64,000 nt of DNA from an uncultured bacterium (GCA_964545075.1 CAZJFS010000001.1:33890-97889), one strand, 5' to 3'. Shown: positions 11,666-59,003, numbered from the stretch's first letter. Made by a program: numbers and translations. The notes: generated from the letters alone by a model not told the origin.

Positions 11666-11749
11666 AATCGCAACTTCCTTATAATTATAAGATTTTCCGT
11701 TAAATTTAAACTCTTTATTATATCAAACTAACGCCGTTATATTCAAACA

Positions 11750-12247: not shown

Positions 12248-12316
12248 ATTAAATTCCAGGTTTTCCGTTATAATTTAAAGCCTTCGATCAATCCGTCGAA
12301 CGTCGCCGCTGCGCGC

Positions 12317-13309: not shown

Positions 13310-13310
13310 G

Positions 13311-38272: not shown

Positions 38273-39121
38273 CTATATCCGTATATTGCTTTTTTTGTTG
38301 AATGGCTTTTTATCGATCCGGTCGCTGAAAGCCTCGACGAGTTTCTTTTCCCATATGAGACAGGCTTTATAATAACCAATTTTCCCAAGAACTTTAAAAT
38401 ATTGAGGCATTAGGCCGTTAAGCATGGCATGCCTTTGATAAGGCTTGGGCCCGTGAAAATGAATTATGGCGGCTTTACCAAGGCTTCCCCAGTACGGCTT
38501 CCAGTTATATTCGGGCGGAATGCGGTCATATTTGCCGGCATAGTAGGAACGATAGGCGGCCTGATCATAAGATGAATTCACGAATTCATCCATGTTTTTT
38601 CTGATATGCGCCATAAAACCTGCGAGGGTCTTTCCGAGATTTTCAATATTCATTATCATTACGCCCGTGTTCATGGCCGTATAATTAGACTTCGTAAATT
38701 CCGGACCGACCGTGAAATATTCAGGCTTTAATTTTTTAAAGTAATCGACGCAATTTTTCATGAACATCACATCGCAGTCCGTATAGAGTACGAACTTATC
38801 CTTCCAACCGCGTTCAGCCATTATGGCCGGAATCTCGACCCTTAAAAACGCTCCCGTGGCGGCCGAAAAAGCCCAGGGCGTATTATCGATGCCGCTGGCG
38901 GACTTTATTTCATCATAAAAAGCGGTTCTTTTATTGATTATGGTGACGGGCTTACCTTCAAGCCATTTCAATAGATGATTTCCATCGTCCTCGCCGTCGT
39001 ATAGAAATACAGGCTCGAGGCATGGATTGTGCTTCATAGCGGTATAAAACGCTACCTGCAGCATATTTGCGTAATAATCGAACGCCATGGAATCGCGTCC
39101 GAGCGCGAAAAACCATTTCAT
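38273..39121 (-). CDS. Putative nucleotide-sugar glycosyltransferase (DxD motif)
   Basis: FVLYTDCDVMFMKN (DxD). No firm family assignment. Overlaps the upstream gene by 4 nt (operon). Confidence 0.3.
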   Translation of the reverse strand: MKWFFALGRDSMAFDYYANMLQVAFYTAMKHNPCLEPVFLYDGEDDGNHLLKWLEGKPVTIINKRTAFYDEIKSASGIDNTPWAFSAATGAFLRVEIPAIMAERGWKDKFVLYTDCDVMFMKNCVDYFKKLKPEYFTVGPEFTKSNYTAMNTGVMIMNIENLGKTLAGFMAHIRKNMDEFVNSSYDQAAYRSYYAGKYDRIPPEYNWKPYWGSLGKAAIIHFHGPKPYQRHAMLNGLMPQYFKVLGKIGYYKACLIWEKKLVEAFSDRIDKKPFNKKSNIRI

Positions 39122-40047
39122 CTCAGCTTCTCCATAAAATCGTTCTTAAAAATATTTCTTATGCTGCGGTAATAGCTTATACTATTCATTTTGGACGCGG
39201 CATAGTGATGCGCGACGGTATTTTGATTCACGGGACATGTAACGTGATCGTCATCGAAAGCCGAGATCTGGTATCCGGTTCCAAGGCATTCAAATATATT
39301 CGAATACTTTGATATTATAAGCGCATGAAGCGTTTGTTCTATCCACCATTGGGCTATTTTGTTCTTTTCTATAAAAATCAGCTCAAGGTAATTTTCTATA
39401 AAATCCATTTCGTATATGTTTTTATCGGGAATAAAAACCAGCCCGGCGTTCACCCGGTCCGTAATTTCAAAAGGAAATTTTGAACTCAGATATTTTATGG
39501 GCAAGGCATAAGCGTTAATGCTGTCGCGCATGAAAAACCCTCTTCCGGTTTCGATACAGTTTATAATTTGCGAACAGTGGTTGAAAAATAAAATATCGGC
39601 GTCCATCATTAAATAGCCCGGAGTTGACGAAAGAAATAAAAAATCAAGAAGCTTGAGCGCAAAAATATGCCGGTTCCGGCCAAACCTGTATTCATTTGAA
39701 AATCTGTATCCTTTAAGAGCGCCGGCCATTTTTTCGTCGGCTTCTTTTTTGCTGATTATTTTACAGCCTGATAAATGCCGCTTGAGCGTTTCAACGCTTT
39801 TATCGTTTAAGGAACCATCGTCATGTATCACGAGCCGGCCGTCATATTTAGAGTGATAATAAAATGTTTTAAGACACCACAGGGCCGCCGCCACGTCCCT
39901 TTCACAAAGCAGCATATGGATCTCGTATTTATCAGCATCGTCAAACGAAACGGGAGGGGAATTCAATATCCGCTGGTTGTAGGAGCCGCACATGATATCG
40001 TTGCAGTCGGGTTCAAATTTATATTCGTTCATTGAATTCATTCGCAA
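39118..40047 (-). CDS. Putative nucleotide-sugar glycosyltransferase (DxD motif)
   Basis: LVIHDDGSL and MMDADILFF motifs. No firm family assignment. Confidence 0.3.
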   Translation of the reverse strand: MRMNSMNEYKFEPDCNDIMCGSYNQRILNSPPVSFDDADKYEIHMLLCERDVAAALWCLKTFYYHSKYDGRLVIHDDGSLNDKSVETLKRHLSGCKIISKKEADEKMAGALKGYRFSNEYRFGRNRHIFALKLLDFLFLSSTPGYLMMDADILFFNHCSQIINCIETGRGFFMRDSINAYALPIKYLSSKFPFEITDRVNAGLVFIPDKNIYEMDFIENYLELIFIEKNKIAQWWIEQTLHALIISKYSNIFECLGTGYQISAFDDDHVTCPVNQNTVAHHYAASKMNSISYYRSIRNIFKNDFMEKLR

Positions 40048-40239
40048 ATTATAAATAATTGAAAGGCCGTTGTCAATAAAATTATTCGGCGGCGGTCTTG
40101 TTTTCCATTGACAAATTATGTTCCACTGGTATAATATGATCTTGTTTCTTCAAATGTTTTTAATGTAAAATTTCGTCCGGTATTGTTTCAAATCAACTTT
40201 TATATAACGTTTTTCAAATTGAATTATAAAAAAAGAAAA

Positions 40240-41610
40240 ATGAACATTAAAAAGAAAAATTCTAAAATAACTATTATAGGCGGGGGGCTTGCGGGATGCG
40301 AGGCTGCATGGCAGGCCGCCAAACTCGGGGTCGAAGTCGATCTTTATGAAATGAGGCCGCTGGTAAAAAGCGGAGTTCATCGCAGCGATCATCTGGGAGA
40401 ACTTGTCTGCACCGATTATCTGGGGCCTAAAGATTTTCCTGAAACTCAGTTTGAGATCGCTCTCAGCCATATGTTATTGCGTGAAGAATTAAGGACCATG
40501 GATTCGCTGATCATGGACTGCGCGGATAAAGCTAAAATCAATACTAAAAAATATTTCGCGGTAAATAGAAACGATTTCGCGGTAAATATCACCAGACGTA
40601 TTTCATCTCATCCGCTTATAAAAGTTATTAACGAAGAAATCAAAAAAATCCCCGAAGGGCCGGTGATAATATCGACCGGCCCGCTAACGTCATGCGACAT
40701 GGCAAAGTCGATATCAGGATTCGCGGGCGCCGAAAATTTTTTTGGATTTGAATCGTCCGCCCCGCTGATACATTCCGGCTCCATCGGCAACGGCGCAATG
40801 GTCCCTGAAGTCTATACCGACGAAAACGGGGCGGATCATGAATGCCTGTACTGCCGGATGAAAAAAGACGAATTTGAAAAATTTCACAAAGCCCTCGTAG
40901 AGGCCGTTCAGGTAAAAGCTCATGTTATTGAAAAAGTTTACATGGACGATATAACGCTGCCAAAGCTTTCATGGATAGATCATCTGGGCGGAAAAGCGAT
41001 CGAGGCCCTCGATAAAACAAGCCTGCTCGAAAAAGTTTTATCGCCGCGAGATATGCCGTCCTTTAAAAGCGGCGCCGAAAAAGATTATGCCGTTTTAAAA
41101 TTGATAAAAATGTATGGCCAGGACGCCTATAAAATGCTCGGATTTCAAACCAAATTAAAATACGGCGAGCAGAAACGGGTCTTTTCGATGATTCCGGGGC
41201 TTGAAAACGCGAACTTTATTCGTTACGGCCACATGCACCTGAGCTGCTATATTAATTCCGGCCAGTGCCTGCCGACGCTTCAGCACAAAAGCAGAAACGA
41301 TCTTTTCTTTGCCGGAGAAATAGCCGGAACCGACACGTATCTCGCCGCGGCCGGAACCGGCTGGATCGCGGGACAAAATGCCACGAGACTTATAAAAAAT
41401 GAACCGCTTTTAATATTACCTCAAAACACTATGTTCGGAGCCTTGTGTTTTTATCTGGCCTATTGCCCTCCGGATAAATTTCAGCCAATCTGCCCTACGC
41501 TATTTTTATTAAGACCAGCGCCTTCAACCGATGACCTTTCTAATTCAGAAAAAATAAAATCTTTTTACCAAAAGTCTTTATCAGGCTTAAAAGAATACCT
41601 TGCCGGATAA
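40240..41610 (+). CDS. trmFO: Methylenetetrahydrofolate--tRNA-(uracil54-C5)-methyltransferase TrmFO (Gid)
   Basis: KITIIGGGLAGCEAAWQAAKLGVEVDLYEMRP...ELVC matches the TrmFO N-terminus. Start moved to the internal ATG at 40240 (MNIKKKN...) because the upstream extension is not conserved-looking. Confidence 0.8.
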   Translation: MNIKKKNSKITIIGGGLAGCEAAWQAAKLGVEVDLYEMRPLVKSGVHRSDHLGELVCTDYLGPKDFPETQFEIALSHMLLREELRTMDSLIMDCADKAKINTKKYFAVNRNDFAVNITRRISSHPLIKVINEEIKKIPEGPVIISTGPLTSCDMAKSISGFAGAENFFGFESSAPLIHSGSIGNGAMVPEVYTDENGADHECLYCRMKKDEFEKFHKALVEAVQVKAHVIEKVYMDDITLPKLSWIDHLGGKAIEALDKTSLLEKVLSPRDMPSFKSGAEKDYAVLKLIKMYGQDAYKMLGFQTKLKYGEQKRVFSMIPGLENANFIRYGHMHLSCYINSGQCLPTLQHKSRNDLFFAGEIAGTDTYLAAAGTGWIAGQNATRLIKNEPLLILPQNTMFGALCFYLAYCPPDKFQPICPTLFLLRPAPSTDDLSNSEKIKSFYQKSLSGLKEYLAG

Positions 41611-41649
41611 TCACAAAATCGATTTTTTAGCCAGGTAACTTTTAACCAC

Positions 41650-41676
41650 TTGACAAAGTTTAAATTATGATATAAT
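41650..41676 (+). promoter_or_regulatory. Candidate sigma70 promoter for the RiPP precursor (TTGACA-15nt-TATAAT)
   Basis: Consensus -35 TTGACA at 41650-41655 and consensus -10 TATAAT at 41671-41676 (15-nt spacer, on the short side). A 6-bp inverted repeat CCGTTA-n7-TAACGG follows at 41696-41714 in the 5'UTR. Strong SD AAGGAGG 7 nt before the ATG at 41738. Confidence 0.45.
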
Positions 41677-41737
41677 ATCTTTGTATGGAACGATGCCGTT
41701 AAACTAAATAACGGCGATATAGTTAAGGAGGATTTCG

Positions 41738-42046
41738 ATGGACGTAAAAAACCAATCAAAAAAGTATATGCAGGTAATCGCTAAATGTTGGTCAGACCCG
41801 GCTTTCAAAACTAGTTTTATAAAAGATCCGGCTAAAGTACTCAAAGAAAATGGCGTTGAAATGCCTGCCGGCATGAAACTGCATGCCGTTGAAAATACCG
41901 AAAAAGAATGTTACATAATAATTCCGCCGAAACCTTCAACCGAGCTCTCGGACGATCAGCTTGATAAGGTCGCCGGTGGCGGCACTTGGGGAACTATAGG
42001 TTCCGCCTGCATCGCAACCGCTGGAACGGCTTATTGCCACGGTTAA
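41738..42046 (+). CDS. RiPP precursor peptide, nitrile-hydratase-like leader peptide (NHLP / proteusin-type) with Cys/Ser/Thr/Gly-rich core
   Basis: Leader MDVKNQSKKYMQVIAKCWSDPAFKTSFIKDPAKVLKENGVEMPAGMKLHAVENTEKECYIIIPPKPSTELSDDQLDKVAGG follows the NHLP pattern (...AWxDPAF...L.V.ENT......P.....ELSDEELE.VAGG) with a double-Gly cleavage motif. Predicted core GTWGTIGSACIATAGTAYCHG (2 Cys, 1 Ser, 4 Thr). Perfect SD. Immediately upstream of the cyclodehydratase gene. Confidence 0.85.
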   Translation: MDVKNQSKKYMQVIAKCWSDPAFKTSFIKDPAKVLKENGVEMPAGMKLHAVENTEKECYIIIPPKPSTELSDDQLDKVAGGGTWGTIGSACIATAGTAYCHG

Positions 42047-42083
42047 TCCATAAGAATTAATACAGCAAAATAATCAAATGAAA

Positions 42084-42130
42084 AACGGCCATCGTTAAGA
42101 GGCATTAAGCCTGCTGATGGCTGTTTTTCA
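42084..42130 (+). terminator. Hairpin + T-run after the precursor gene (probable partial terminator / attenuator)
   Basis: AACGGCCATC...GATGGCTGTT ~10-bp stem (one G-T wobble) with a ~22-nt loop, followed by TTTTT. Sits in the 132-nt gap between the precursor and the first modification enzyme. Confidence 0.4.
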
Positions 42131-42178
42131 TAGCATATGGCTTTTGATTTATTTATTTTTTGTTAAGGCGTTCATAAC

Positions 42179-44461
42179 TTGAATAAAAAAATTATTTTTA
42201 AAAACCACTTTCATGTCGAAATCATCGATTCCGATAGTTGCGTCATACTGGTTTCCGAAAATTCGAACTTTGTCCTGAAAGGCCGGCTTTATTGCCTCAT
42301 CGCAAGAATGCTCGACGGTTCGAAAGACGCCGATGAAATAGTCGACGCGCTGGAAACCGAAGTTTCAGGGGCCGAGGTTTATTTCACGCTTGAAAAGCTC
42401 AAGCATAAAGGCTATATTACCGAAAAAAACGAAACCGTGTCTTCAACATTCGCCGCTTACTGGAGCCTTCTTGGCGTTTCCGAATTCAGCGCAAAAGAAG
42501 CGCTTGAAAACACGCTTATCAAATTAACGGCGATCGCTGATACAGATGTCGGGCCGCTTGAAGTCGCGATAAAAAACGCCGGCATGAGCGTCGAAGTATG
42601 CGGAACCGACAGCGCATTCGAAGGAAAGCACCGGGCAAGACAAATTATCGTGATCGCGGCTCCTGATTATCTTTATCCTGAACTTTTCGAAATAAACAGA
42701 AACTCCATCAAAAAAAACATTCCATGGATGCTCATCAAGCCTTCAGGCGCGATCATCTGGATCGGCCCTATTTTTATTCCGGGTAGGACCGGCTGCTTTG
42801 AATGCCTCGCTCAGCGCCTTAAAACCAATCGCGACATCGAAATGTTCATCCAATCGAAAAAAAATGATCTTTCGCCTATCGTCACATCGAGAGGAACCAT
42901 TCCGTCAAGCGTTCAAATGGCGTATCAGATGGCCGCCCAACAACTGGCGATCTGGGCGGTGCAAAACGAAGGAGCGAACCTGGCCGGACGCGTCATAAGC
43001 GTAAACACCACTACGCTTTTATCGCAGGAGCATATTTTAACGAAACGTCCGCAATGTCCTGCCTGCAATATAGGTTCACCCGCGGATGAAAAACCTAACC
43101 CGCCCGTCCTGAAAAGCATAATCAAAGATACCGATTCACTTTACGGCGGCTGCCGGACGATGAGCCCGGAGGAAACTTTCAATAAATTTTCAAACCACGT
43201 AAGCCCTATAACCGGAGTGGTAAATTCCCTGGTCAAGGCCGAAAGCGGCAGCGACGGAATCTTGAACGTTTACTTCGCCGGCCAGAATTCGGCGATGCGC
43301 AACAATAACATCATGGCGCTTCAAAAAAATCTGCGCAGCATGAGCGCGGGAAAAGGCATAACTGAAATAGCCGCCAAAACCGGTGCTTTATGCGAAGCAA
43401 TTGAAAGATATTCAGGTCTTTATAACGGCAACGAGCCTAAAATAAAAACAAGCTATTCTAAAATAAAAGATCAGGCCGTTCTACCCAACGACTGCATGAA
43501 TTACAGCGACGAACAATTTAAGAACAGGAACATAATAAACTCTCAAGGCCATCATTTCCAGACGGTTCCGGAACCGTTCGATGAAAACGCCGTCGTCGAA
43601 TGGACGCCATTTTGGTCGCTCGAAAAAAAAGAATGGCGTTACGTCATCTCCAGCTATTGTTACTACGGTTATCACGACCCCGAAGGGCATTTTTTTTCGT
43701 GGCCGAATTCGAACGGATGCGCGTCAGGCAATACACTCGAGGAAGCTATTCTACAGGGATTTTTCGAAATAAACGAACGCGACGCTGTAGCCCTGTGGTG
43801 GTATAATATGATAAAAAGGCCTGCCGTGGACCTCGAAAGTTTTAACATCGCCTATATCGAAAAATTATATTACGCGTATAAAAAGAAGAACAGGAAATTC
43901 TGGGTGCTCGACATTACCAGCGATACCGGAATTCCGACTTTTACGGCCGTCTCTTACAAGCCGGATTCGGACCGCGAAGAAATAGTTTTCGCCTTCGGGT
44001 CTCATTTCGACCCCAAAACGGCGCTTATAAGAGCGCTCACGGAAATGAATCAGTTCATGCCTTCCGTCCTCGAAGATTCTCCCGGCGAGTATTCATTCAA
44101 GGACCCGTTCGTAACGTCGTGGTGGAAGAACGCTAAACTCCGTAATGAATCATATCTGGCTCCGGATAAGACTCAGCCGGCCAGAAAGCTGTCGGATTTC
44201 AATGATATTTCGTCTAACGATATGCTCGCGGATATTAACCGGTGCGTGAATTTGATGGATGAGCGCGGCATGCGGACGCTTATACTGGACCAGACCCAGC
44301 CGGACGTCGGATTGAACGTGGTTAAAATCATAGTGCCTGGAATGCGCCATATGTGGCAGCGTCTCGGCCCCGGAAGGTTATACGACATACCAGTCGAAAT
44401 GGGATGGCTCAAAAAACCTAAAAAAGAAAATGAAATGAATAAAACCGCCATTTTCGTTTAG
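42179..44461 (+). CDS. Fused E1-like (ocin-ThiF/RRE) + YcaO azoline-forming cyclodehydratase (PatD/TruD-like), copy 1
   Basis: 760 aa. Two CxxC motifs (GRTGCFECLAQRL, RPQCPACNIG), as in the Zn-binding PatD/TruD class. YcaO motifs GKGITEIAAKTGALCEAIERYSG and FFEINERDAVALWWYN. TTG start as called; the true start is uncertain. Confidence 0.85.
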   Translation: MNKKIIFKNHFHVEIIDSDSCVILVSENSNFVLKGRLYCLIARMLDGSKDADEIVDALETEVSGAEVYFTLEKLKHKGYITEKNETVSSTFAAYWSLLGVSEFSAKEALENTLIKLTAIADTDVGPLEVAIKNAGMSVEVCGTDSAFEGKHRARQIIVIAAPDYLYPELFEINRNSIKKNIPWMLIKPSGAIIWIGPIFIPGRTGCFECLAQRLKTNRDIEMFIQSKKNDLSPIVTSRGTIPSSVQMAYQMAAQQLAIWAVQNEGANLAGRVISVNTTTLLSQEHILTKRPQCPACNIGSPADEKPNPPVLKSIIKDTDSLYGGCRTMSPEETFNKFSNHVSPITGVVNSLVKAESGSDGILNVYFAGQNSAMRNNNIMALQKNLRSMSAGKGITEIAAKTGALCEAIERYSGLYNGNEPKIKTSYSKIKDQAVLPNDCMNYSDEQFKNRNIINSQGHHFQTVPEPFDENAVVEWTPFWSLEKKEWRYVISSYCYYGYHDPEGHFFSWPNSNGCASGNTLEEAILQGFFEINERDAVALWWYNMIKRPAVDLESFNIAYIEKLYYAYKKKNRKFWVLDITSDTGIPTFTAVSYKPDSDREEIVFAFGSHFDPKTALIRALTEMNQFMPSVLEDSPGEYSFKDPFVTSWWKNAKLRNESYLAPDKTQPARKLSDFNDISSNDMLADINRCVNLMDERGMRTLILDQTQPDVGLNVVKIIVPGMRHMWQRLGPGRLYDIPVEMGWLKKPKKENEMNKTAIFV

Positions 44462-44482
44462 TTATATTAAAAAGGATTCAGA

Positions 44483-45916
44483 ATGAATAAAGACTCGGAT
44501 ATTTTAAAATTTCGCGACGCGATTAATATTTCGGTGGTCTCCGGCGACGAAATCATAGTGCAGGACGAGATGTTTTCGCTAAAAATCCAGAATTGCTCAA
44601 AAGCGATAAGCTGTTTTTTAGACGCGATAAAAAACAGCGGCGGAAGCGAAGACTGTCTTTCGGAAATCGTTCTGGCCAATGGCGACAACAATGATCTGAT
44701 GAACTTTTATTACTATCTTGAAAGGTTTTCAAAACTTTGCATGATATCCAGAACGTTATGCGATAAAGGATTGAAAATGGTTACGCTAGAACCTATATCG
44801 CTTGGTTTTAAATGGAACGCTGAGCGCAAACTCGACGAAAATCAAAAACATGTGATGTCGCGGTTCGTCTTCTCTCGAAGAGACGGCGCGAAACATATAT
44901 GCGAATCGCCTTTATCGCTGGCCCGTCTGGTGATCATCGATGAAAAGTGCGCCGATTTTCTTCATTTCCTCTCATCGCCAATAAGCCTTGACGGGCTATG
45001 CGCGAAACTCCCTTCGCTCACGAAGGAATTTATCGAATATTTTCTTGAAACGCTTTTCAATTCAGGGTTCGTCGTCCCGGTTGCCGATGACGGGACGAGC
45101 GTCGAGGATAAGAGCGAAGCGCTGTTGCAGTGGGACTTCCATGATCTTTTGTTTCACTCGCGGACGCGCATAGGCCGTCATAATTACCCGAACGGCGCGA
45201 CATATCCTTATCTAAAAAAGATAGAGCCTCTTCCGGCGTATAAAGAGCCCATGACCGAAAACGGCATTGATTTATACAAACCCGATATCGAAACGCTTAA
45301 ATCCGAAGATTTTCCATTCACGCTCGTTTTAGAGCAGCGTCAATCGGTCAGAACTTACTCCGACCGGCCAATAAAGATGGAACAGCTCGGCGAATTTTTA
45401 TACCGGTCCTTCCGCATCAAGGAAGTGATCGACGCTCCGCCCGGCGAAGCCGAATCATATCAGGTCGGCCGCAGGACCTACGCCGGCGGCGGCGCATGCT
45501 ATGAACTTGAAATTTATCCGGTAATCAATAAATGCGAAGGGCTTGCGCGCGGAATATATCATTATGATCCGTTGAACCACAGATTGCATCTTATAAATGA
45601 TGATATGTTTTTCGTAGAGACGCTCGTACGGAGGGCGTCGATGTCCGCGGCCAAACTTTGCGTTCCGGAAGTATTATTCGCGATAACAGCCAGATTCGCT
45701 AGAATTTCATGGAAATACAGCGGAATGGCGTACGCCGCGATCTTAAAAAACGTGGGGTCATTATATCAAAATATGTATCTGGTCGCGACCGCCATGGACC
45801 TCGCCCCCTGCGCGCTCGGCAACGGCGAATCCGACGTCATCTGCAAAGCGGCGGGACTTGATTATATTTCAGAATCCGCCGTCGGCGAATTTATATTAGG
45901 CAATAAAAGGATTTAA
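44483..45916 (+). CDS. SagB/ThcOx-type FMN-dependent azoline dehydrogenase with N-terminal extension
   Basis: C-terminal nitroreductase-like domain (RQSVRTYSD...YAGGGACYELEIYPV...CALGNG) typical of SagB/McbC. The ~200-aa N-terminal extension is reminiscent of the RRE-like domains of cyanobactin ThcOx. 477 aa. Confidence 0.75.
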   Translation: MNKDSDILKFRDAINISVVSGDEIIVQDEMFSLKIQNCSKAISCFLDAIKNSGGSEDCLSEIVLANGDNNDLMNFYYYLERFSKLCMISRTLCDKGLKMVTLEPISLGFKWNAERKLDENQKHVMSRFVFSRRDGAKHICESPLSLARLVIIDEKCADFLHFLSSPISLDGLCAKLPSLTKEFIEYFLETLFNSGFVVPVADDGTSVEDKSEALLQWDFHDLLFHSRTRIGRHNYPNGATYPYLKKIEPLPAYKEPMTENGIDLYKPDIETLKSEDFPFTLVLEQRQSVRTYSDRPIKMEQLGEFLYRSFRIKEVIDAPPGEAESYQVGRRTYAGGGACYELEIYPVINKCEGLARGIYHYDPLNHRLHLINDDMFFVETLVRRASMSAAKLCVPEVLFAITARFARISWKYSGMAYAAILKNVGSLYQNMYLVATAMDLAPCALGNGESDVICKAAGLDYISESAVGEFILGNKRI

Positions 45917-45918
45917 TT

Positions 45919-47271
45919 ATGCGTAGAGTTATATGCACGTTTCCGGTGATGAAATTCACCGACGAGAAACCGGTCCAGATAAAAAACAGCTTTATCTCTC
46001 GAAGCTCTTCTCCATATAATATTTACCTGCTCGCATCGATAATGGAAAACAACGGATACGAGGTCGATATCAAGGATTGGATAAGCCTGAACTGCGACGT
46101 CGAAGAGGCCGCGAAGGAACTTCTGGAATATGATCTCGTTATGATATCGTGCCTTTCATGGTCATGGCCTCCGGTTATATTTATCATCGATTATCTTCGC
46201 AAAAAAAGAAACGACCAGATAATCGTCGTCGGCGGAGTGCAGGCATCTTTATTCGGCGTTCAGATCCTCGAAGAATTCGAGGTCGATTACGCAGTTTGCG
46301 GCGAGGCTGAAAGATCCATAATTCCGCTGATAGAAACTATAGAAAAAAAGGGCGATCCGCGCCGCGTACCAGGGCTCGTATATAAGGAAAACGGCGCTAT
46401 TATAAAAAACGAGCTGGCGTCCCTGCTGAATCCGTCGGAAATCGGCGAACTTCCGCTTCCGCTATATGAACGCCTTCCTAAAGATTCATGCAACTGGCTT
46501 TCGATACAATCCTCGCGCGGGTGCAGGAACCGCTGCATTTATTGCTCGGTGCCGTATCATCGCAGCTGGCGCCCGCTCGAACCGGAAAAATTCGTCGAAA
46601 AGATCATCGAATATTCGCCATTTCTTAAACGCACGCTTTCAGGAAAATTCATGATCATCGACGATAACTTCACCATAAATCCCGAAAGGTCCATCGCGAT
46701 AGCCAAGCTCTCGAAACAAAAAGGCGTTAAATTTGACGCCATCTGGAACGCCGAAGTTCCGGACCTTTATAATAGCGAGCTGCTCAGCGAAATGGCGCCA
46801 TTCACCGACGGGATTCTTGTAGGCGCGGAATCCTTCGATGCTGAAACGATCATCAAGATCGGCAAGGGTTATAAACCCGAAGATATCGTCGCTGGCGCCT
46901 TGAACGCTCAAAAATGCGGCATATCAAACAAACTCATATGCTCTTTTATTATAGGTTTTCCGTGGCAAACTAAAGAAATGATCATCGAGGAAATTAACCA
47001 AATATACGACCTGGTAAATCTGGCCGATCTAAACGTTATAATCAATTGGCTCACCCTTTCGCCGGGATCTCGGCTGTGGGCTGAAAAATTCAAACAGCCG
47101 ATCAAATTACGTGAATTTTCAAAACAATTCAGACGGATGCAGGAAAATATAAACATTCTTACGAATCAGGATATCGAAGAAATAAAAATGTATATAAAGC
47201 TTCTGCAATCCAACATAGAAAACGGTTATTACAGGTTCCAGCACCATCCCAGCATTTTTTATATTGTCTGA
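45919..47271 (+). CDS. B12-binding radical SAM enzyme (class B rSAM, probable C-methyltransferase)
   Basis: N-terminal B12-binding Rossmann-like region (IIVVGGVQAS...DYAVCGEAE), then the radical SAM cluster motif SSRGCRNRCIYCSVPY (CxxxCxxC). Confidence 0.75.
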   Translation: MRRVICTFPVMKFTDEKPVQIKNSFISRSSSPYNIYLLASIMENNGYEVDIKDWISLNCDVEEAAKELLEYDLVMISCLSWSWPPVIFIIDYLRKKRNDQIIVVGGVQASLFGVQILEEFEVDYAVCGEAERSIIPLIETIEKKGDPRRVPGLVYKENGAIIKNELASLLNPSEIGELPLPLYERLPKDSCNWLSIQSSRGCRNRCIYCSVPYHRSWRPLEPEKFVEKIIEYSPFLKRTLSGKFMIIDDNFTINPERSIAIAKLSKQKGVKFDAIWNAEVPDLYNSELLSEMAPFTDGILVGAESFDAETIIKIGKGYKPEDIVAGALNAQKCGISNKLICSFIIGFPWQTKEMIIEEINQIYDLVNLADLNVIINWLTLSPGSRLWAEKFKQPIKLREFSKQFRRMQENINILTNQDIEEIKMYIKLLQSNIENGYYRFQHHPSIFYIV

Positions 47272-47360
47272 TGGCATTCACTGATTTATCCGTGATTTTT
47301 CCATTCATGGATATTTCTTAATTCCGCGGCGAAAAAATATAATAAACGAAGGCGTGAATA

Positions 47361-49592
47361 ATGATAGAAAAACCTCTAATTAAACATCATTTCCAGATGG
47401 AGATCTTGAAAGAAAAAGTTTATCTTTTTTCTGAAAATGAAAATTTTATTCTTAAAGGTCGCCTTTATACCTCAATAGCGTCTCTTATGGATGGAAAAAG
47501 GTCCTGCCACGAAATAGCGGATATGCTTTCGGAAAATTTTTATCCCGCGGAAGTTTATTATGCTTTTGAAATAATGGAAAAAAAAGGCTATATAACCGAG
47601 GATTCACCATGTTTTAACGCTGAAGAAAAAAAATTCTGGAATTCGCTTGGGTTTCATACAAAAGACGTAGAAGAAAAACTTAAAAACACCCATCTTTCGC
47701 TTATATCTATAGGAAATCATCGGAAAATGGCTTCCCTTCTGAAGAAATATAAAATAGAAGTCTCTTCCGAGTCGAAATTTATGGTCGTTATAACGGATGA
47801 TTACATGCACGAAAGCCTTTCGGAGATCAACAGAGAAAACCTGAAAACCTGCAGGCCGTGGCTTCTAGTAAAACCTTCAGGGCTCATCCCTTCAATCGGG
47901 CCGCTTTTTATTCCCGGTAAAACTGCTTGTTATGAGTGCTTTTCCAACCGCTACAAAGCTAACAGGGAAATAAACGATTCTATTTTTCAAAAAATGCTGA
48001 AAGATAAAATTATGCCCTCGGCCACTATGCCTTTTACGGGCGATATTGTTTATCAAATGTCAGTTATGGAGATCGCCAGATATATAGCAGAAGGGAAAAA
48101 TGAAAGACTGGAAGGAAAAATCATAAGTTTTAATTCCCTGAATCTAAAAACAAAGGAACACATTCTCATAAAGCGACCCGAATGTAACTCTTGCGGAAAC
48201 CCTCATGAAAGAAGCCTTCTCTTTCCGGCGCAGATAAATTTACAAAGCAGAAAAAAGACGTATGTCACGGATGGAGATCATAGATCGTGCGACCCAGAAG
48301 CGACATTTGAAAAATATAAACACAATATCAGTGAATTTACAGGAGTTATAGCAAAATTTATAAACAATACAAGCGGTAATAAAGGGCCGCTTCACGTTTA
48401 CTTTTCCGGGCATAATCTCGCCCTTAATCCAGCCCATATAGCGGTCGAAAAGAACAGCCTTAGAAATCTCAGCGCCGGCAAAGGCATGACAGATATTCAG
48501 GCAAAGGTAAGTTCTCTCGCGGAAGCTTTGGAAAGATATTCGGGTATTTTTCGCGGCGACGAATACAGAATAAAAAGCACTTATAAAAAACTTGGCGATC
48601 AGGCAATTCATCCTAATAACTGCATGAATTACAGTAAAAGCCAGTATATAAATAGAATTGCCCTCAATAAAAGGGGGCTTCTTTTTCACACCGTCCCTCT
48701 TCCTTTCGATGAAGACATTGAAATAGAATGGTCTCCCGTCTGGTCTATATCGAAAAAAAACTGGAAATATCTGCCTACTTCTTACTGCTATTTCGGATAT
48801 AGGTATAAATACGAGGACGGCCGTGATTTTTTCGCCTGGGGAGATTCTAACGGTTTCGCTTCAGGCAATACCATAGAAGAAGCCATACTTCATGGTTTTT
48901 TTGAACTCGTAGAAAGAGACGCCGTCGCGATATGGTGGTATAATAAATTAACAAAGCCGGCCGTCGATCTTTCAAGTTTCAATCATCCATATATAAAAAA
49001 ATTAATGGATTATTATAATCTTTTAGGAAGAAACCTGTGGGTATTAGATCTCACTACCGATTTTAATATTCCTGTTTTCGCCGCCATTTCCATGAACCTG
49101 AAAAATAATATGGATGAAATTCTTTTTGCCTTTGGATGTCATTTCGATCCGGAAATTGCTCTTCTCAGATCTCTGTGTGAACTAAACCAGTTCGTTTCAA
49201 TCGCGATCGACAAACCTGAACACGATAACAATCATAATAACGATACGTCAAAGGCATGGTTGAAAAGCGCCGCGGTAAAAGATCATTCATATCTCGTGCC
49301 CGGAAAAACAATAAAAAGATTTCCGGATTATAAATCGCGTGCCACGGACGATCTTCTCAAAGATATACAATTATGTAACCAAGTAGTTGAAGAACTCGGC
49401 ATGGAAATGCTCGTACTCGATCAAACAAGAGCTGACGTAGGAATGAATGTAGTGAAGGTTATCGTACCGGGAATGAGGCATATGTGGGAAAGATTCAAGG
49501 AAGGACGTCTTTATGACGTTCCCGTAAAAATGAGATGGCTATCTGAAAAGAAAAATGAAAAAGAATTAAATCCAATAGGAGTATTTGTATAA
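47361..49592 (+). CDS. Fused E1-like + YcaO cyclodehydratase (PatD/TruD-like), copy 2 (paralog of 42179..44461)
   Basis: 743 aa. N-terminus HHFQMEILKEKVYLFSENENFILKGRLY parallels copy 1. CxxC motifs GKTACYECFSNRY and RPECNSCGNP. YcaO motifs GKGMTDIQAKVSSLAEALERYSG and FFELVERDAVAIWWYN. Both copies look intact. Confidence 0.85.
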   Translation: MIEKPLIKHHFQMEILKEKVYLFSENENFILKGRLYTSIASLMDGKRSCHEIADMLSENFYPAEVYYAFEIMEKKGYITEDSPCFNAEEKKFWNSLGFHTKDVEEKLKNTHLSLISIGNHRKMASLLKKYKIEVSSESKFMVVITDDYMHESLSEINRENLKTCRPWLLVKPSGLIPSIGPLFIPGKTACYECFSNRYKANREINDSIFQKMLKDKIMPSATMPFTGDIVYQMSVMEIARYIAEGKNERLEGKIISFNSLNLKTKEHILIKRPECNSCGNPHERSLLFPAQINLQSRKKTYVTDGDHRSCDPEATFEKYKHNISEFTGVIAKFINNTSGNKGPLHVYFSGHNLALNPAHIAVEKNSLRNLSAGKGMTDIQAKVSSLAEALERYSGIFRGDEYRIKSTYKKLGDQAIHPNNCMNYSKSQYINRIALNKRGLLFHTVPLPFDEDIEIEWSPVWSISKKNWKYLPTSYCYFGYRYKYEDGRDFFAWGDSNGFASGNTIEEAILHGFFELVERDAVAIWWYNKLTKPAVDLSSFNHPYIKKLMDYYNLLGRNLWVLDLTTDFNIPVFAAISMNLKNNMDEILFAFGCHFDPEIALLRSLCELNQFVSIAIDKPEHDNNHNNDTSKAWLKSAAVKDHSYLVPGKTIKRFPDYKSRATDDLLKDIQLCNQVVEELGMEMLVLDQTRADVGMNVVKVIVPGMRHMWERFKEGRLYDVPVKMRWLSEKKNEKELNPIGVFV

Positions 49593-49621
49593 ATGGCAGG
49601 TTTTAAATTTTGGAGGAATAA

Positions 49622-52600
49622 ATGAGCGATAAAAAATTTTTTCGTCTCACGCATCCGCAGAAACGCATCTGGTACACTGAAAAAACATATTTAAATACGG
49701 CATTCGCGAATCTGGCCAACGTCATCAGATACAGGCGTGAAATAAACGTCGAAATTCTCGAAAAAGCTATAAAATCAGTAATCTCAAAGCACGAAGGCAT
49801 TCGCCTCAGACTTTCCGGCGAACGCGAAGGCATCGAAGAATTTCAATACGTTTCTGATTCAATCCCTGAAAAGATCGACCACCTTGATTTTTCAGGCCCG
49901 CGCGGAACGGATAAATTAGAGGAATGGATCTGCTCAAACGCTTCAACCCCGTTTCCGATATTTGACTCCCCGCTTTACTATTTCGCGACCATCCGCTTTG
50001 CAAATAACGATTCGGGCTATTCGGATACGGGATTTTATTTCAAGCTTCATCATATAATTTCCGACGGCTGGACGCTCGCCATTATTTATAATCAGGTTCT
50101 CGATCATTATTTAAAGATTGAAAGCGGACTTGAAAGCGAAATCAGCGACAATCCGACTTATTTGAATTACATCGGGGACGAGGACAATTATTTAACTTCT
50201 CCGGAATTCGCGGAAGACGAAAAATTCTGGTTTGACGACCTGTCAGACAAGCTGGACGTATCATCATTGAATCAGGACAAACCGGTCGCCTCTTCCATAC
50301 GATCTAAAAGGGCTATTTTTACGATTTCAAGAGAATTGCGCGAAAAAATCCACGAATATAAGCGATCGGGAAGCACCACGGTCTTTAAAATTATAACCGC
50401 GGCATTCTTCATATATATTTCGCGCGTCAATTCGGCGAAGAATATAGCGATCACGACGGCCGTCCACGGCCGGAACAATTCAAAAATGAGATCCACCGCG
50501 GGAATGTTCGTCGGCACCATACCATTGCGGATAACGATAGACGGGCGGGACACCTTTGAAAAGATCGTCTCGAGCCTCGGCGAAAAATTGAACTACATAA
50601 TTAAGAAGCCCGCCAGATACCCTTTTGACATGCTCATCAACAGGATGCGCGAAGAAAAAAATCCCAACGCCGATATTATGCTTGAATGCCCGAGCGTCGT
50701 CGGCCATCCTGACGATAAAAACGAGGACATATCGTTTATAAACCATTATCAGAGCTATGAACCTTCATGCCTTGCCATGCACATAAATCCCTTTGGAACC
50801 GACGCAAAAGGCAAACTTGACATCATACTCGATTACCAGACGGAACTATTTTCCCATGAAAATATCGAAACGGTCTTTAATTCACTTTCATGCATATTGA
50901 ACGATGCGCTGGATAACGTTAAAAAGTCCGTCTGCGATTTGAATATGATTTCGGAAGAAGAAAAAAGAAAGGTCTTAGTAGATTTTAACCGGACCGAAGA
51001 ACAATTTTCTGGCGGAGAGACGCTTTTCGATCTTTTCGAGGAGGCGTCAAAAAAATATCCGCGAAGGACGGCGCTCGTTTACGACGACGTTTCCATAACC
51101 TATTCGGAGCTTTCGGACAAAGTCGGGCGGCTCGCCTCGAGGCTCGCGAATCTCGGCGTCGGACCCGAAAAAATAGCGGCGATATACGCGCAACGCTCGC
51201 AATATTACGTTATAGCTATGCTCGCCATAATGAAGGCGGGCGGAGCGTATCTGCCGATCGACGTTTCATATCCCCGCGAACGGGTCAATTTCATGCTTAA
51301 AGACGCCGAAGTCTCGGCCGTGCTTACCATGGAAAACCTTAACGATAAATTCGACTGCGACGCTTCACGCGTCTTTTTAGATGACGAAAATTCATATACC
51401 GGCGCTCCATGCGATTTAAAATCTCAGGCTGCGGCAAGAAATCTCGCGTATATAATATATACCTCGGGTTCCACCGGCAAACCCAAAGGCGTTATGATAG
51501 AACACCGCTCGGCCGTAAACATGATATGCTGGAGCATAAAGCATTATCAAATGAGCCACCAGGACCGGTGCGCCCAGTTCGCGTCGTTCGCTTTCGACGC
51601 CTCGGTGCCGCAGACATTTTCGCCTCTCGCCAGAGGCGCGGAGCTTCATATTTTAAAAGACGATTTGCGTTATTCGCCATTGCTCGCCAACGATTATTTT
51701 GAAAAAAACGGCATAACCTATGCCGATCTTCCGACCCAGTTCTGCGAGCAATTCATCAGGGAAACGAACAATCACTCGTTAAGAAGGGCTACCACTGGCG
51801 GTGAAAAATTAAAAAATGCGCCGGAGAACATAAATTTCGTGCTTACCGATGAATACGGCCCGACCGAATGCACCGTCACCGCGACATATTATGACGTGGA
51901 CGGAAAATATTCAAAGACGCCCATTGGAAAACCTATATCTAACATCAGGGTGTATATTCTCGATAAAAAAGATCTTCCCGTTCCGGTAGGAGCGCCGGGA
52001 GAACTATGCGTCGCGGGCGCGGGCCTGGCCAGAGGCTATCTCAACAGGCCCGAGCTGACGGTGGAAAAATTCGTCGCCGACCCGTTCATGCCGGGCGAAA
52101 AAATGTACCGCACCGGCGATCTCGCCAGGTGGCTGCCCGACGGCAATATCGATTATCTCGGCCGCATCGATCATCAAGTCAAAATAAGAGGATTCAGAGT
52201 CGAGCTGGAAGAGATACAAAATGAGATAATCAAACATCCAATGGTCAGCGACGCCGTTATAGCGAACGGCAAGAACGCCGACGGCGATGATTTTATTTCG
52301 GCGCATATAATACTGAAAAAAGAAGCGGACGGGATTAATTTTTCACATGAGCGAATCAATGAATTTCTTTCAAAAACTCTTCCAAATTATATGCTGCCCT
52401 CGAAAATAATGTTCATCGACAGGATACCGCTGACATCGGGCGGCAAGGCCGATAAAAAAGCGCTTCTGGCAATGCTGCCTGAAGAAGGCCGACTGGCCGC
52501 GTTCGTCGCGCCGTCGAATGAAACGGAAAAAACGCTGGCCGGAATCTGGTCGGAACTTTTAAACGTCAAAAAAATCGGCGTAACGGATGATTTTTTTGAG

Positions 52601-55600
52601 CTCGGCGGCCATTCGCTGAAAGCGGCCTCTCTTCAATTGAGCGTTAAAAAGGCTTTCGCAGTTGAAATATCGCTTCACGATATTTTTTCGGCCCCGACGA
52701 TAAAGGCGCTGGCCGGAATCATTAAAAATAATTCGCGCACGGCCGGTTCTTCGATCACGCGAGCGCCTGAAAGAAAACACTATCCGCTTTCAGCCGCGCA
52801 AAAAAGGCTTTTCGTGATGGACCGGATATCCGGCGGAAAAACCACATATAACCTGACCTCGGCATTTAAGATACGCGGCCCGCTCGACGCGACGAGGTTT
52901 GGAAACGCCATTCGCGCGGCCATCGAAAGGCATTCGGCTTTCGGCACCCGCTTCGAGGAGGTCGACGGCGAGCCGGTGGCCGTCATCGAAAAAAACGTTA
53001 AATTCAAACGCAATTATATTGAAACCAATGAAGAAAGCGCCATCGCAGCGATCAGGGATTTCATAAAGCCTTTCGATCTTAAAAGAGCGCCGCTTTTCAG
53101 GATACTGCTCATTAAGTACGCCGAAGACGGGCATATTTTCGTCTTCGACGCCCATCACATAATTTTCGATGGTATATCGTCTAACGTATTTATGCATGAA
53201 ATCTGCGAGTTATACGCCGGACGCACTTTAGAAAAACTCGAATTCGATTATCAGGATTACGCGGTATGGCAGAACGAGGTCATGCCCGAATCCTCTTCAA
53301 TTCAAAAACAGCAGGATTACTGGTTGAACGTTTTTAAAAACGACGTCGAGCCCCTTGAGATCCCGACCTCCAGGCCCAGAAATGCCGACATATCATATTC
53401 GGGTTCGAGGGTGCTTTTAAATCTCGACGGGCTTTCAAACGATCTTGAAAAGCTTTCGACGAGATGCTCGGCGACTAATTTCACGACGCTGATGGCTTTA
53501 TTTTTCGTATTGCTGCATAAATATTCCGGCCAGTCCGATATCGTTTCAGGGGTTCCGGCCGCCGGCCGTGAAAACGCCGAATTCGAGAAAACCGTCGGCA
53601 TGTTCGTGAACACTCTGGCCATAAGATCTTACCCGGAAGCATGTAAGCCCTTCGCTTCGTTCGTAAATGAAATTAAAAATTCCTTTGTTTCGGCGCTCGA
53701 CAATCAACAATATCAGTTCGACCGGCTCGTCGAAAAGCTCGGCTTGAAACGCATGCCGGGCCGCAATCCTCTCTTCGACGTCATGTTCGCCTATGAAGAC
53801 ATGGAAAACTCGACCTTCAAAACGGAAAACATCGAAATGACCAATTACGCCTTCGACGCCGGCATATCGAAATTCGACCTCACTCTTTTCGCCTCGCGCG
53901 GAAACGGCTCTCTGGAACTTTCGCTCGAATACCGCGACTCTCTTTTTGAAAGAGCCATGGCTGAGAGGTTTTTAAATCATTTCGCCGCTCTCTTGAAAAA
54001 CGCCGCGGCCGATCCCGAAGCCACGATAGGCGACATCGACGCAATGGGGGAAAACGACCTTCAAAAATTAATACGAGGTTTCAATGCAACCGGCGCCGCT
54101 TATCCGGCGGACACCACTCTAATCTCGCTTTTCGAAAAAAAAGCCTCGGAAAGCCCTGATTTGTGCGCGCTCGTATATGACGGTAAAACAATGACTTACT
54201 CGGAACTCAATGAAAAGGCCAACCGCCTCGCGTGGCGGCTCAAAGAAAATATATATTCTAAAAATGAAATATTCGGGATACTCCTAGACCGATCTTTTGA
54301 AATGGTGGTTTCGATACTTGCGGCGCTCAAGGCCGGCGGCGCTTACCTTCCTATAGATCCGTCCTATCCGGCCGAAAGGATAGAGTATGTCATTTCAGAC
54401 AGCGGGATTAAAACGCTTTTAACCGAAAAAAAGCATATGGCGGCCGTTTCCTTTAATAACAATATGATCGATATTCATGAAGGAACATCGTATTCCGCCA
54501 GAACCGAAAACCCCGAACCCGTAAATAGCGGCGAGGACATAATATACATAATTTATACTTCCGGTTCCACGGGCCGGCCGAAAGGCGTAATGGTAAAGCA
54601 CAAGGGCGCGCTCAATTATATCTGGTGGTGCAAAAAAGTCTACGCCGAAGACGGCGCGTGCGATTTTCCGCTTTATTCCTCCATATCTTTCGATCTCACC
54701 GTAACTTCCATATTCACTCCGCTTATTTGCGGCGGAAAGATCGTCATATACGGCGAGCGTGAAAAGGAAACGCTTATCGACAGAATTATAGCGGAAGATA
54801 ACGTCGATATAGTGAAGCTCACTCCAACTCACCTTCAGATCATTGAAGGTATGAAGATAAACTGTAAAAAGATCAGAAAATTCATAGTCGGCGGCGAAGA
54901 TCTCAAGGCCGATCTGGCCATGAAGATATTCAAAAAATTCAATAATAAAATCCGGATATTCAACGAATATGGCCCGACGGAAACCACCGTCGGCTGCATG
55001 ATCTACGAATTTTCACCTTCCGACGCAAAAGCGTTATCGGTTCCGATAGGAATTCCGGCCGCGAACACCATGATTTACATACTTGGAAAAGACCTGAAAC
55101 CCGTTCTTCCCGGAACGACGGGCGAGATATATATTTCCGGAGACGGCGTGGCCCGCGGATATCTCAATAAAAGCGAAATGACTGCCGCTAAATTCGTCAG
55201 CGATCCGTTCAACCCGGAAAGGACAATGTACAAAACCGGCGATCTTGCGCGAATGCTTCCAAGCTGGAATGTAGAATTTCTGGGGCGCATCGACGATCAG
55301 GTAAAACTCAGAGGCTTCAGGATCGAGATTGGAGAGATCGAGGCCGAACTTTTAAGGCATTCATCGATCCGCGAAACCGCAGTATTATTAAGGGAAGACG
55401 CGCAGTCGGGCAAATATCTTTGCGCATACTACACCGTTTCAGGCGAAACCGGGCCCGGGCCCGAGCCTGATATTAAAGAGCTCAAGGCGCACCTCGCCAA
55501 ACGGCTGCCTTATTATTTCATTCCGGACGTTTTCATGAAGCTTGAAAATATTCCGGTAACGGCCAACGGCAAACTGGACAGAAAGGCGCTGCCGGACCCG

Positions 55601-57523: not shown

Positions 57524-57542
57524 TAACGGAGGAAGGAAAAAA

Positions 57543-58994: not shown

Positions 58995-59003
58995 TAAAAA
59001 AGT

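Follow-up and report, generated by a model that had tools for sequence, protein, structure and literature searches.

A predicted azole-peptide gene cluster with two fused heterocyclases and a B12-radical SAM enzyme in an uncultured member of Wallbacteria

Organization of the gene cluster

A compact set of five genes was analyzed in a 64,000-nt stretch of DNA (hereafter the window; GCA_964545075.1, CAZJFS010000001.1:33890-97889) from a metagenome-assembled genome (MAG) of uncultured Candidatus Wallbacteria. [quoted passage not shown] The five open reading frames (ORFs) are intact and full length, lie on the + strand within 7.9 kb (41738-49592) and are separated by gaps of 2-132 nt, which gives an operon-like layout. 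They encode, in this order, the precursor peptide, a fused heterocyclase (D1), an azoline dehydrogenase, a cobalamin-binding radical S-adenosylmethionine (SAM) enzyme (M) and a second, paralogous heterocyclase (D2) (Table 1). The initial annotation had given all five ORFs and their order correctly; the start of 41611 that it gave for the region merely marks the end of trmFO, and two further same-strand genes downstream, for a nonribosomal peptide synthetase (NRPS) and a major facilitator superfamily (MFS) efflux pump, went unmentioned, as did the family of related clusters and the lack of a protease and an exporter. No additional precursor gene was found within the window by tblastn, and Pfam and NCBIfam scans detected no peptidase or ATP-binding cassette (ABC) transporter domain in any gene between 36.3 and 60.4 kb.

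Table 1. Positions of the cluster genes, expression signals and selected other genes in the window
Feature	Coordinates	Strand	Description
Promoter-like site	41650-41676	+	TTGACA, 15 nt, TGATATAAT (extended -10); ~60 nt upstream of precursor start; consensus match
Shine-Dalgarno sequence	41725-41731	+	AAGGAGG; upstream of precursor gene
Precursor gene	41738-42046	+	102 aa; NHLP leader and core
Leader	41738-41980	+	aa 1-81
Core	41981-42043	+	aa 82-102
Stem-loop	42077-42131	+	~17 bp and U-rich stretch; in 132-nt spacer after precursor gene
D1	42179-44461	+	760 aa; fused winged-helix (RiPP recognition element, RRE)/E1-like/YcaO heterocyclase
Dehydrogenase	44483-45916	+	477 aa; ThcOx/CyaGox-type, flavin mononucleotide (FMN)-dependent azoline dehydrogenase
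M	45919-47271	+	450 aa; cobalamin-binding radical SAM enzyme; presumed C-methyltransferase
D2	47361-49592	+	743 aa; second paralogous fused heterocyclase
trmFO	40183-41610		directly upstream of RiPP cluster; NF003739 380 bits, cut-off 262
NRPS	49622-57523	+	2633 aa; C-A-T-C-A-T-R
MFS efflux pump	57543-58994	+	DHA2 family; Pfam/NCBIfam domains
hemC	59004-59921	opposite to cluster	downstream of MFS gene
C39 cysteine peptidase	3084-4139	+	351 aa; stand-alone, membrane-anchored; candidate leader peptidase; 38 kb upstream of cluster

The precursor peptide and its core

In the translated precursor, the residues ...STELSDDQLDKVAGG are followed by the core, GTWGTIGSACIATAGTAYCHG. The leader was recognized by two NHLP-related models, TIGR03793 (83.5 bits over residues 10-81, cut-off 50.9) and PF02979 (57 bits, cut-off 27), and the best match in the PDB was 8TB1, the MprE7 proteusin leader (E 2.9e-16), so that the NHLP leader, double-glycine junction and core recognized initially are upheld. 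An L70-x4-L75 motif is followed by the GG cleavage motif at G80-G81 (...LDKVAGG, then the core), and this junction aligns with GG, AG or GA in about 80 related metagenome precursors. A low-confidence AlphaFold2 model (pLDDT 57; 70-83 over residues 1-40) contains three helices and a beta-hairpin, and 8TB1 was again the sole significant match when this model was searched with Foldseek (E 4e-4, TM 0.47-0.54).

An identical precursor was detected on seven contigs, drawn from metagenomes of JGI and ENA, from a MAG at NCBI and from an assembled Logan run; the JGI samples presumably come from anaerobic digesters. In a related cluster from an Eremiobacterota MAG (L009), the leader is 65% identical to that of the window and the 20-residue core, GTWGTIGSACIATAGTAYCH(G), is identical. 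Thirteen of the 20 core codons differ between the two, all 13 synonymously and none non-synonymously, so the peptide is kept by strong purifying selection. Such identity of the core across saturated synonymous change is strong evidence for a functional, selected product.

Comparison of four divergent cores, namely that of the window and L009 and those of three further relatives (..NTAGTIGCACIVTAGTAYSH in L012, ..HTAGTIGCACIVTAGTAYSH in L014 and YTTLGTMACVCFVTVGTVACGTLPD in L071), yielded the family motif T-x-G-T-x-x-[S/C]-x-C-x-x-T-x-G-T-x-x-[C/S]. A cyclizable residue is kept at seven positions (T2, T5, S/C8, C10, T13, T16 and C/S19), which are mostly three residues apart, and the only variation is the exchange of Ser and Cys at positions 8 and 19. 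Such a pattern would be expected of heterocyclization sites. The computed monoisotopic mass of the unmodified core is 1996.877 Da and that of a core with seven azoles is 1856.694 Da. Full-text literature searches with the core and with sub-strings of its relatives returned no relevant match, and within this literature its first description as uncharacterized stands.

The precursor gene is also set apart by candidate expression signals. A promoter-like site and a strong Shine-Dalgarno sequence precede it (Table 1); in a consensus scan for promoters and terminators, overall counts were not above the shuffled expectation. The stem-loop that follows it has a fold energy of -38.4 kcal/mol (z -3.7, with none of 200 shuffles as good), and L009, L012 and L014 each have a terminator-like hairpin of dissimilar sequence in the corresponding place, whereas L010 has none, which makes four of five family members with such a structure. 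It is likely a partial terminator or an mRNA stabilizer that holds the precursor above enzyme levels, which fits the usual arrangement in RiPP pathways, where precursor levels exceed those of the enzymes.

The heterocyclases and the dehydrogenase

Both D1 and D2 matched the YcaO family (PF02624, E 2e-96 and 1e-99, respectively), the SagD-type model TIGR03604 (263.7 and 270.1 bits, cut-off 219) and the leader-binding/E1-like model TIGR03882 (135.6 and 124 bits, cut-off 36.9), and both contain the winged-helix domain PF21084. Characteristic motifs are present in D1 (CFEC 206, CPAC 293, EAIERY 406 and EINERD 530) and in D2 (CYEC 190, CNSC 275, EALERY 388 and ELVERD 515). Full-length PDB matches were found to MusD, LynD and TruD for D1 (E 4e-196 to 6e-184) and to LynD, MusD and TruD for D2 (E 2e-186 to 3e-172), in agreement with the first description of the pair as fused PatD/TruD-type cyclodehydratases. 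Near-invariant residues were defined by alignment with 114 other fused heterocyclases; D1 keeps 108 and D2 107 of the 116, including both ExxER motifs and the Zn-binding CxxC pairs, so the YcaO catalytic residues are in place in either protein.

D1 and D2 are 43% identical over their full length and form sister clades inside the NHLP-associated enzymes in a neighbor-joining tree. The D1 type is present in every member of the cluster family, with orthologs 56-67% identical in L009, L010, L012 and L014, and may be considered the general heterocyclase because it is the sole one in relatives that have a single heterocyclase gene. Orthologs of D2 with at least 71% identity were detected only in L070, L072 and L009; beyond these three, identities of at most 49% belong to a continuum of more than 2000 fused heterocyclases. 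All D2 orthologs have replacements at five near-invariant sites (L71F, L214Y, Q292E, G324D and Q526H in D1 numbering), and among the replacements of the D2 clade one lies four residues before the ExxERD motif and one inside the GGHR motif. As its motifs are kept while these clade-specific replacements have accumulated, D2 looks like a specialized yet catalytically competent paralog. Where the precursor is known, D2 occurs only with the Ser8 and Cys19 variant of the core; this association compares two lineages with three and is a lead and not a result.

The replacements common to all D2 orthologs could also mean that D2 is not a usual azoline synthase at all: it might assist D1 as a scaffold, or as the other half of a heterodimer, without catalysis of its own, or it might perform other YcaO chemistry on the backbone, of the amidine or macroamidine type for example. 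Relatives with one heterocyclase evidently manage on D1 alone, and of the enzymes that the window and L009 have in common D2 has diverged least (71% identity, compared with 51-56% for the rest), both of which would suit such a role. However, D2 lacks none of the residues of the YcaO ATP/Mg motifs, its RRE domain and the two CxxC pairs are present, and 107 of the 116 near-invariant residues are kept; it scores 270 bits with TIGR03604, above the cut-off, and matches LynD with an E value of 2e-186, and fused E1-YcaO enzymes of this type are not known to have an activity other than azoline formation. Hence a non-standard D2 seems unlikely, and a specialized azoline-forming paralog is the preferred interpretation.

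The dehydrogenase comprises the domains PF18679 (HTH_57), PF22767 (ThcOx) and PF00881 (Nitroreductase), with two RRE-like domains at the N-terminus. Its score with TIGR03605 (SagB) is 166 bits (cut-off 78.4), and it aligns over residues 22-474 with 5LQ4, the structure of CyaGox/ThcOx (E 4e-79). A Lys-Tyr motif, which is reportedly important for dehydrogenase activity in studies of BcerB, is kept as K411-Y412 within SWKYSG. These features agree with a SagB/ThcOx-type FMN enzyme carrying an RRE-like N-terminal extension, as had been proposed.

The cobalamin-dependent radical SAM enzyme

M contains a B12-binding domain (PF02310, residues 32-132, 53.7 bits against 32.1) and a radical SAM domain (PF04055, residues 197-360, 66.5 bits against 29.5), and its CRNRCIYC sequence at 202-209 provides the cluster-binding motif C202-x3-C206-x2-C209, all of which is consistent with its assignment to class B. 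Taken together, every model named in the initial annotation (TIGR03793, PF02624, TIGR03604/TIGR03605, and PF02310 with PF04055) was matched above its curated cut-off. The best solved relative of M is 9CCB, the methyl-coenzyme M reductase (MCR) glutamine C-methyltransferase QCMT/MgmA (E 9e-12). M lies below every curated equivalog cut-off, the best score being about 76 bits where the cut-offs are 250-360; examples are TIGR04014 (76 bits, cut-off 360) and TIGR03975, the model of PoyB/C-type RiPP C-methyltransferases (38 bits, cut-off 281.85). About 28 sequences, each at least 41% identical to M, make up its clade, beyond which identities fall to 29%, and an exhaustive HMMER scan of 1.84 billion representatives returned one close sequence and only 105 at E <= 1e-30. 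By sequence, M is a member of a small clade without a characterized member.

At the level of the family, the most likely function of M is the methylation of an aliphatic carbon. An alternative is a different radical step on the peptide, such as a cross-link, an epimerization or a rearrangement, for which one might point to the scores below all equivalog cut-offs, the lack of a characterized member in the clade, the presence of the non-methylating enzyme OxsB among the PDB matches of M, and the arrangement of its relatives in arrays of two to five paralogs. On the other hand, the nearest characterized relatives (QCMT/MgmA, CysS, TokK and TsrM) are methyltransferases, and the cores of this family are rich in aliphatic residues. 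In addition, polytheonamide and other proteusins with multiple C-methylations typically have paralog arrays of class-B radical SAM enzymes (PMC11583998; PMC9259500), and the nostatin A pathway uses an enzyme of this class for methylation (PMC11583998). A non-methylating M is accordingly given a low probability, and C-methylation is retained as the presumed reaction.

Related clusters in other lineages

Related loci were reached from homologs of the precursor and of M. A word-indexed search with the precursor gave only four homologs, a metagenome scan with the precursor alignment gave 54 loci, and a scan of genome contigs with D1 gave a single relative (L008) and did not return the window's own contig. 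The precursor, heterocyclase, oxidase and M co-occur in several lineages with a shuffled gene order: precursor-D-D-Ox-M in L009, whose enzymes are 51-71% identical to those of the window; precursor-D-Ox followed by four M paralogs and a larger radical SAM gene in L012/L013; precursor-D-Ox-M-M in L014/L015; precursor-D-Ox-M in L071; and M-precursor-D-Ox in L010. About 50 other metagenome NHLP loci have multiple precursors with short hypervariable cores and no radical SAM enzyme of the M type.

Several of these loci have features of their own. In L012 (5745-13115), five B12-binding radical SAM genes stand in a row after the dehydrogenase, comprising the four M paralogs and one gene of 544 aa, and its core ends in the same 19 residues (TAGTIGCACIVTAGTAYSH) as that of L014, where only two M genes occur; this array beside an identical core end suggests multiple or iterative modifications. 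The same MAG that contains L010 also contains a thioamide-type cluster (L011, 10001-15821), in which an M homolog (65%) precedes a precursor of 96 aa, whose leader differs and whose core is KINEKTKTGIGTGGGVAGAAAAAAF, and then a stand-alone YcaO protein and TfuA. In L071 (5593-7341), another short ORF, in which ...GMISGG forms a GG junction ahead of ADKGANHFCAFDGTDLICWPPSK, precedes a 509-aa radical SAM protein with a Fer4_12 domain and looks like a second RiPP module adjoining the family cluster.

Three genes that flank the Eremiobacterota clusters, encoding a GT28 glycosyltransferase, a protein of about 280 aa and a small radical SAM protein, were considered as missing members of the set. None has a homolog in the window, and on that account they are read from the sequences as local synteny or lineage-specific additions.

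The adjacent NRPS and MFS genes

The NRPS gene starts 29 nt after the stop codon of D2 and is followed after 19 nt by the MFS gene, both on the strand of the RiPP genes. The synthetase carries an additional condensation domain at its N-terminus and weakly matches a cyclic nucleotide monophosphate-binding domain at its C-terminus (residues 2519-2597, 19 bits against 27.5), and it is AusA/MxcG-like at scores below the equivalog cut-offs (NF047350, 1559 bits, under its cut-off). In blastn comparisons, a sister contig with 84-85% nucleotide identity (L070) aligned to positions 43631-49592 of the window and then directly to 58994-59939 (hemC), so that the 9.4 kb of NRPS and MFS genes (49593-58993) have no counterpart there and form a clean indel. 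No NRPS was found in the Eremiobacterota clusters L009, L012 and L014 either, and the block therefore lies outside the conserved RiPP gene set.

Because of the close spacing, a hybrid RiPP-NRPS pathway was considered, in which the NRPS would acylate or extend the azole peptide or make a co-exported dipeptide aldehyde. It is true that the same-strand NRPS follows D2 without a terminator-like structure in the gap, that the MFS pump is the only transporter nearby, and that NHLP-like genes exist inside NRPS/polyketide synthase loci elsewhere (L059, L060 and L062). Nevertheless, the candidate was rejected on the grounds of the L070 indel, in which the D2 stop leads straight to hemC, and of the NRPS-free Eremiobacterota clusters, one of which has an identical core; moreover, AusA-type synthetases (NF047350), which the NRPS resembles, make dipeptide aldehydes or pyrazinones self-sufficiently. 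We regard a hybrid pathway as very unlikely and treat the five RiPP genes as a unit of their own. In the three loci just mentioned, the NHLP-like gene (9983-10288 in L059 and L060, 9833-10285 in L062) has a conserved C-terminal peptide, YFIFSRGGFS[C/F]DFV[V/I]HNR, and is located between very large ORFs that are 28-41% identical to the NRPS of the window, which is a different NHLP context.

Other genes in the window

No more than two genes away from the cluster is trmFO, in the window as well as in L009 (16816-17167, 111 aa available). It is the sole flanking gene common to the two (65% over 111 aa), and this shared position may reflect co-transfer, an integration hotspot or ancient linkage. 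Whereas trmFO is intact in the window and in L001, it was called as two ORFs, of 285-304 aa and 185 aa, in the population variants L002-L005 (about 4800-6230), which could be a real frameshift or an assembly error. Between trmFO and a substrate-binding protein gene, on the strand opposite to the cluster, are two ORFs, of which one (38273-39121, 282 aa) has only a sub-threshold Pfam match to GT8 (24.0 bits, cut-off 24.3) and the other (39118-40047, 309 aa) matches no Pfam or NCBIfam model; the same applies to a 598-aa ORF at 32030-33826. Farther upstream, the - strand (10421-15008) encodes a 414-aa ketoacyl synthase and a 565-aa AMP-binding enzyme, with a gene for an amine-oxidase-like flavoprotein nearby (8652-10052); these genes could form a further small locus for lipids or secondary metabolites.

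The stand-alone C39 peptidase was identified by PF03412 (E 1e-18, residues 145-269) and has the Cys motif QSTCGPAS, and its hydrophobic N-terminal half probably spans the membrane. Its best NCBIfam match, a weak one, is TIGR03796, the peptidase domain of an NHLP-family export ABC transporter. It may be the enzyme that removes the leader at the GG motif of the precursor.

Comparison with known systems

The Mpr system of Methylovulum psychrotolerans is similar in several respects. Processing of NHLP precursors by the fused YcaO enzyme MprC and the FMN oxidase MprD has been reconstituted, and the L(X)4L motif of MprE7, at Leu70/Leu75, is required for MprC activity (PMC12455567). With it the window shares an NHLP leader of about 81 aa that is approximately 40% identical to MprE7 (8TB1), the L(X)4L motif at the same positions, the GG junction, the fused RRE-E1-YcaO architecture and an FMN-dependent azoline oxidase (PMC12455567). 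In contrast, ten precursors (MprE1-10) with short variable cores and one cyclodehydratase are described there, and the part of that paper covered in this analysis mentions no radical SAM enzyme (PMC12455567); in the window, two heterocyclases and a B12-dependent radical SAM enzyme accompany one precursor, whose 21-aa core is strongly conserved.

Nostatin A (Nostoc sp., NstA-G) also derives from an NHLP precursor; NstD is its cyclodehydratase, NstE its azoline oxidase and NstA a cobalamin-dependent radical SAM enzyme of class B, which is proposed to C-methylate proline iteratively, and the product is linear with several azole rings (PMC11583998). However, nostatin A requires a LanM-like dehydratase and a PoyD-type epimerase and contains dehydroalanine/dehydrobutyrine residues and a sactionine bridge, and those genes are absent here. 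Its core (AASCQTTASSACTTPSCLSSASTASSNSCS) is unrelated to that of the window, which has no proline, and NstA has been likened to PoyB/C (PMC11583998), whereas M reaches 38 bits against a cut-off of 282 with the corresponding model. The carnazolamide (Cca) system resembles the window in its NHLP leader, its YcaO enzyme and dehydrogenase and its Ser/Thr/Cys-rich core; there the YcaO-dehydrogenase pair makes thiazoles, oxazoles and methyloxazoles, and the dehydrazoles are classed as a sub-clade of proteusins (PMC10676384). Dehydrazoles are nevertheless defined by a LanMbC dehydratase, with a radical SAM epimerase, an S-methyltransferase and an S8 peptidase in addition (PMC10676384), all of which are absent here.

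Among solved structures, D1, D2 and the dehydrogenase are closest to cyanobactin enzymes (PatD, TruD, LynD and MusD; ThcOx/CyaGox), which have in common with them the three-domain architecture, the Zn CxxC pairs and the logic of leader recognition through L(X)4L. Unlike cyanobactin clusters, the window has no PatA/PatG proteases or macrocyclase, PatE-type leader or recognition cassettes, or prenyltransferase; the predicted product is linear rather than macrocyclic, and the source is not a cyanobacterium. M resembles QCMT/MgmA (9CCB) in its length of 450 aa and in its B12-binding and radical SAM architecture, and QCMT/MgmA acts on a polypeptide substrate (PMC11796369). Yet the substrate of QCMT/MgmA is a folded archaeal enzyme and not a RiPP core, and with a similarity this remote no conclusion can be drawn on the site of methylation by M.

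Taken from gene content, then, the cluster is not a cyanobactin cluster, because PatA/G proteases are missing (no peptidase domain from 36.3 to 60.4 kb) and the precursor is of the NHLP and not the PatE type. Nor is it a classical polytheonamide-type proteusin cluster, because it has no PoyD-type epimerase, as no second radical SAM enzyme is present, and M is not of the PoyB/C type, with 38 bits on TIGR03975.

Proposed pathway

The precursor would be transcribed from its own promoter, with the hairpin probably keeping it at higher levels than the enzymes. By homology, the 81-aa leader is expected to fold like that of MprE7 and to dock through its L70-x4-L75 strand on the RRE domain of the heterocyclases. 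D1 and D2 would then use ATP to form thiazolines and (methyl)oxazolines from Cys, Ser and Thr residues of the core (-18 Da per ring), probably at T2, T5, S8, C10, T13, T16 and C19; D1 would be the general enzyme, and D2 probably serves a site or a chemistry for which D1 is poor, Ser8 or a near-C-terminal site being a guess. The ThcOx-type enzyme is predicted, again by homology, to oxidize azolines to azoles (-2 Da each). These docking, azoline-forming and oxidation steps draw on close homology to reconstituted systems, and family-level comparison suggests that M adds at least one methyl group to an unactivated carbon (+14 Da each). Cleavage after G80-G81 would be carried out by a C39-type peptidase encoded elsewhere, the candidate being the membrane protein at 3084-4139. 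What results would be a linear peptide, about 21 residues long, that carries several azole rings and probably methyl groups as well.

A number of observations weigh against this scheme. All sequences come from MAGs or metagenome contigs; the conserved gene set has no protease, transporter or immunity gene, leaving maturation and export unexplained; and the assignment of cyclized residues and of the division of work between D1 and D2 depends on two D2-bearing precursor lineages compared with three without. D1 of the window deviates at near-invariant positions that its Eremiobacterota orthologs keep (K317D, H325C, Q398A and P755K). M is only remotely related to characterized enzymes (QCMT, E 9e-12), and class-B radical SAM enzymes also run non-methylating reactions, as exemplified by OxsB (PMC12931638). 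Finally, an M homolog with 65% identity is part of the YcaO-TfuA thioamide-type cluster L011, and the chemistry of M is therefore unlikely to depend on azoles.

Some of these points, namely the missing dedicated protease, exporter and immunity genes and the four substitutions in D1, together with the split trmFO next to the cluster in several population variants, might also be expected of a silent or decaying remnant that makes no product. Against this, the five ORFs remain intact and full length, the precursor is identical on all seven contigs, the comparison of cores with L009 gave 13 synonymous and no non-synonymous changes, and the promoter-like site, strong Shine-Dalgarno sequence and hairpin are all in place. 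Decay thus has hardly any probability in our assessment, and a functional operon for a linear azole-containing peptide is favored.

A more far-reaching proposal combines several of the above features: an unrecognized RiPP family with a periodic core, unchanged between two uncultivated lineages (labeled by NCBI as the candidate phyla Wallbacteria and Eremiobacterota); a rare, neofunctionalized D2 that, possibly as a heterodimer with D1, reaches sites a single enzyme cannot; and a small QCMT-like M clade whose modification would be new to azole peptides, for instance C-alpha/beta methylation next to Gly/Thr or C-methylation of an azole. As a whole, this combination is speculative and rather doubtful; if it were true, the strict conservation of the core would point to a specific, possibly new, molecular target.

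Significance

Azole-bearing NHLP peptides are already known from the MprC/MprD, nostatin A and carnazolamide systems, the latter two products having been isolated (PMC11583998; PMC10676384), and the type of pathway is not new. In a full-text search, one paper named both Wallbacteria and biosynthetic gene clusters, and only in passing. Within the literature searched, the present cluster is the first to be described from a small family in uncultivated phyla that has this conserved core. With five genes in 7.9 kb, it is a tractable entry point for heterologous expression in this uncultivated lineage, and the exact conservation of its core suggests a product with a precise target and a reasonable lead in the search for antibiotics or in ecology. 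It also raises two questions of enzymology, i.e., why two paralogous LynD-like heterocyclases are needed for a single 21-aa core and what a rare QCMT-like clade of B12-dependent radical SAM enzymes does on a peptide. The finding would extend a known class rather than overturn current understanding, and the cluster is a good target for genome mining.

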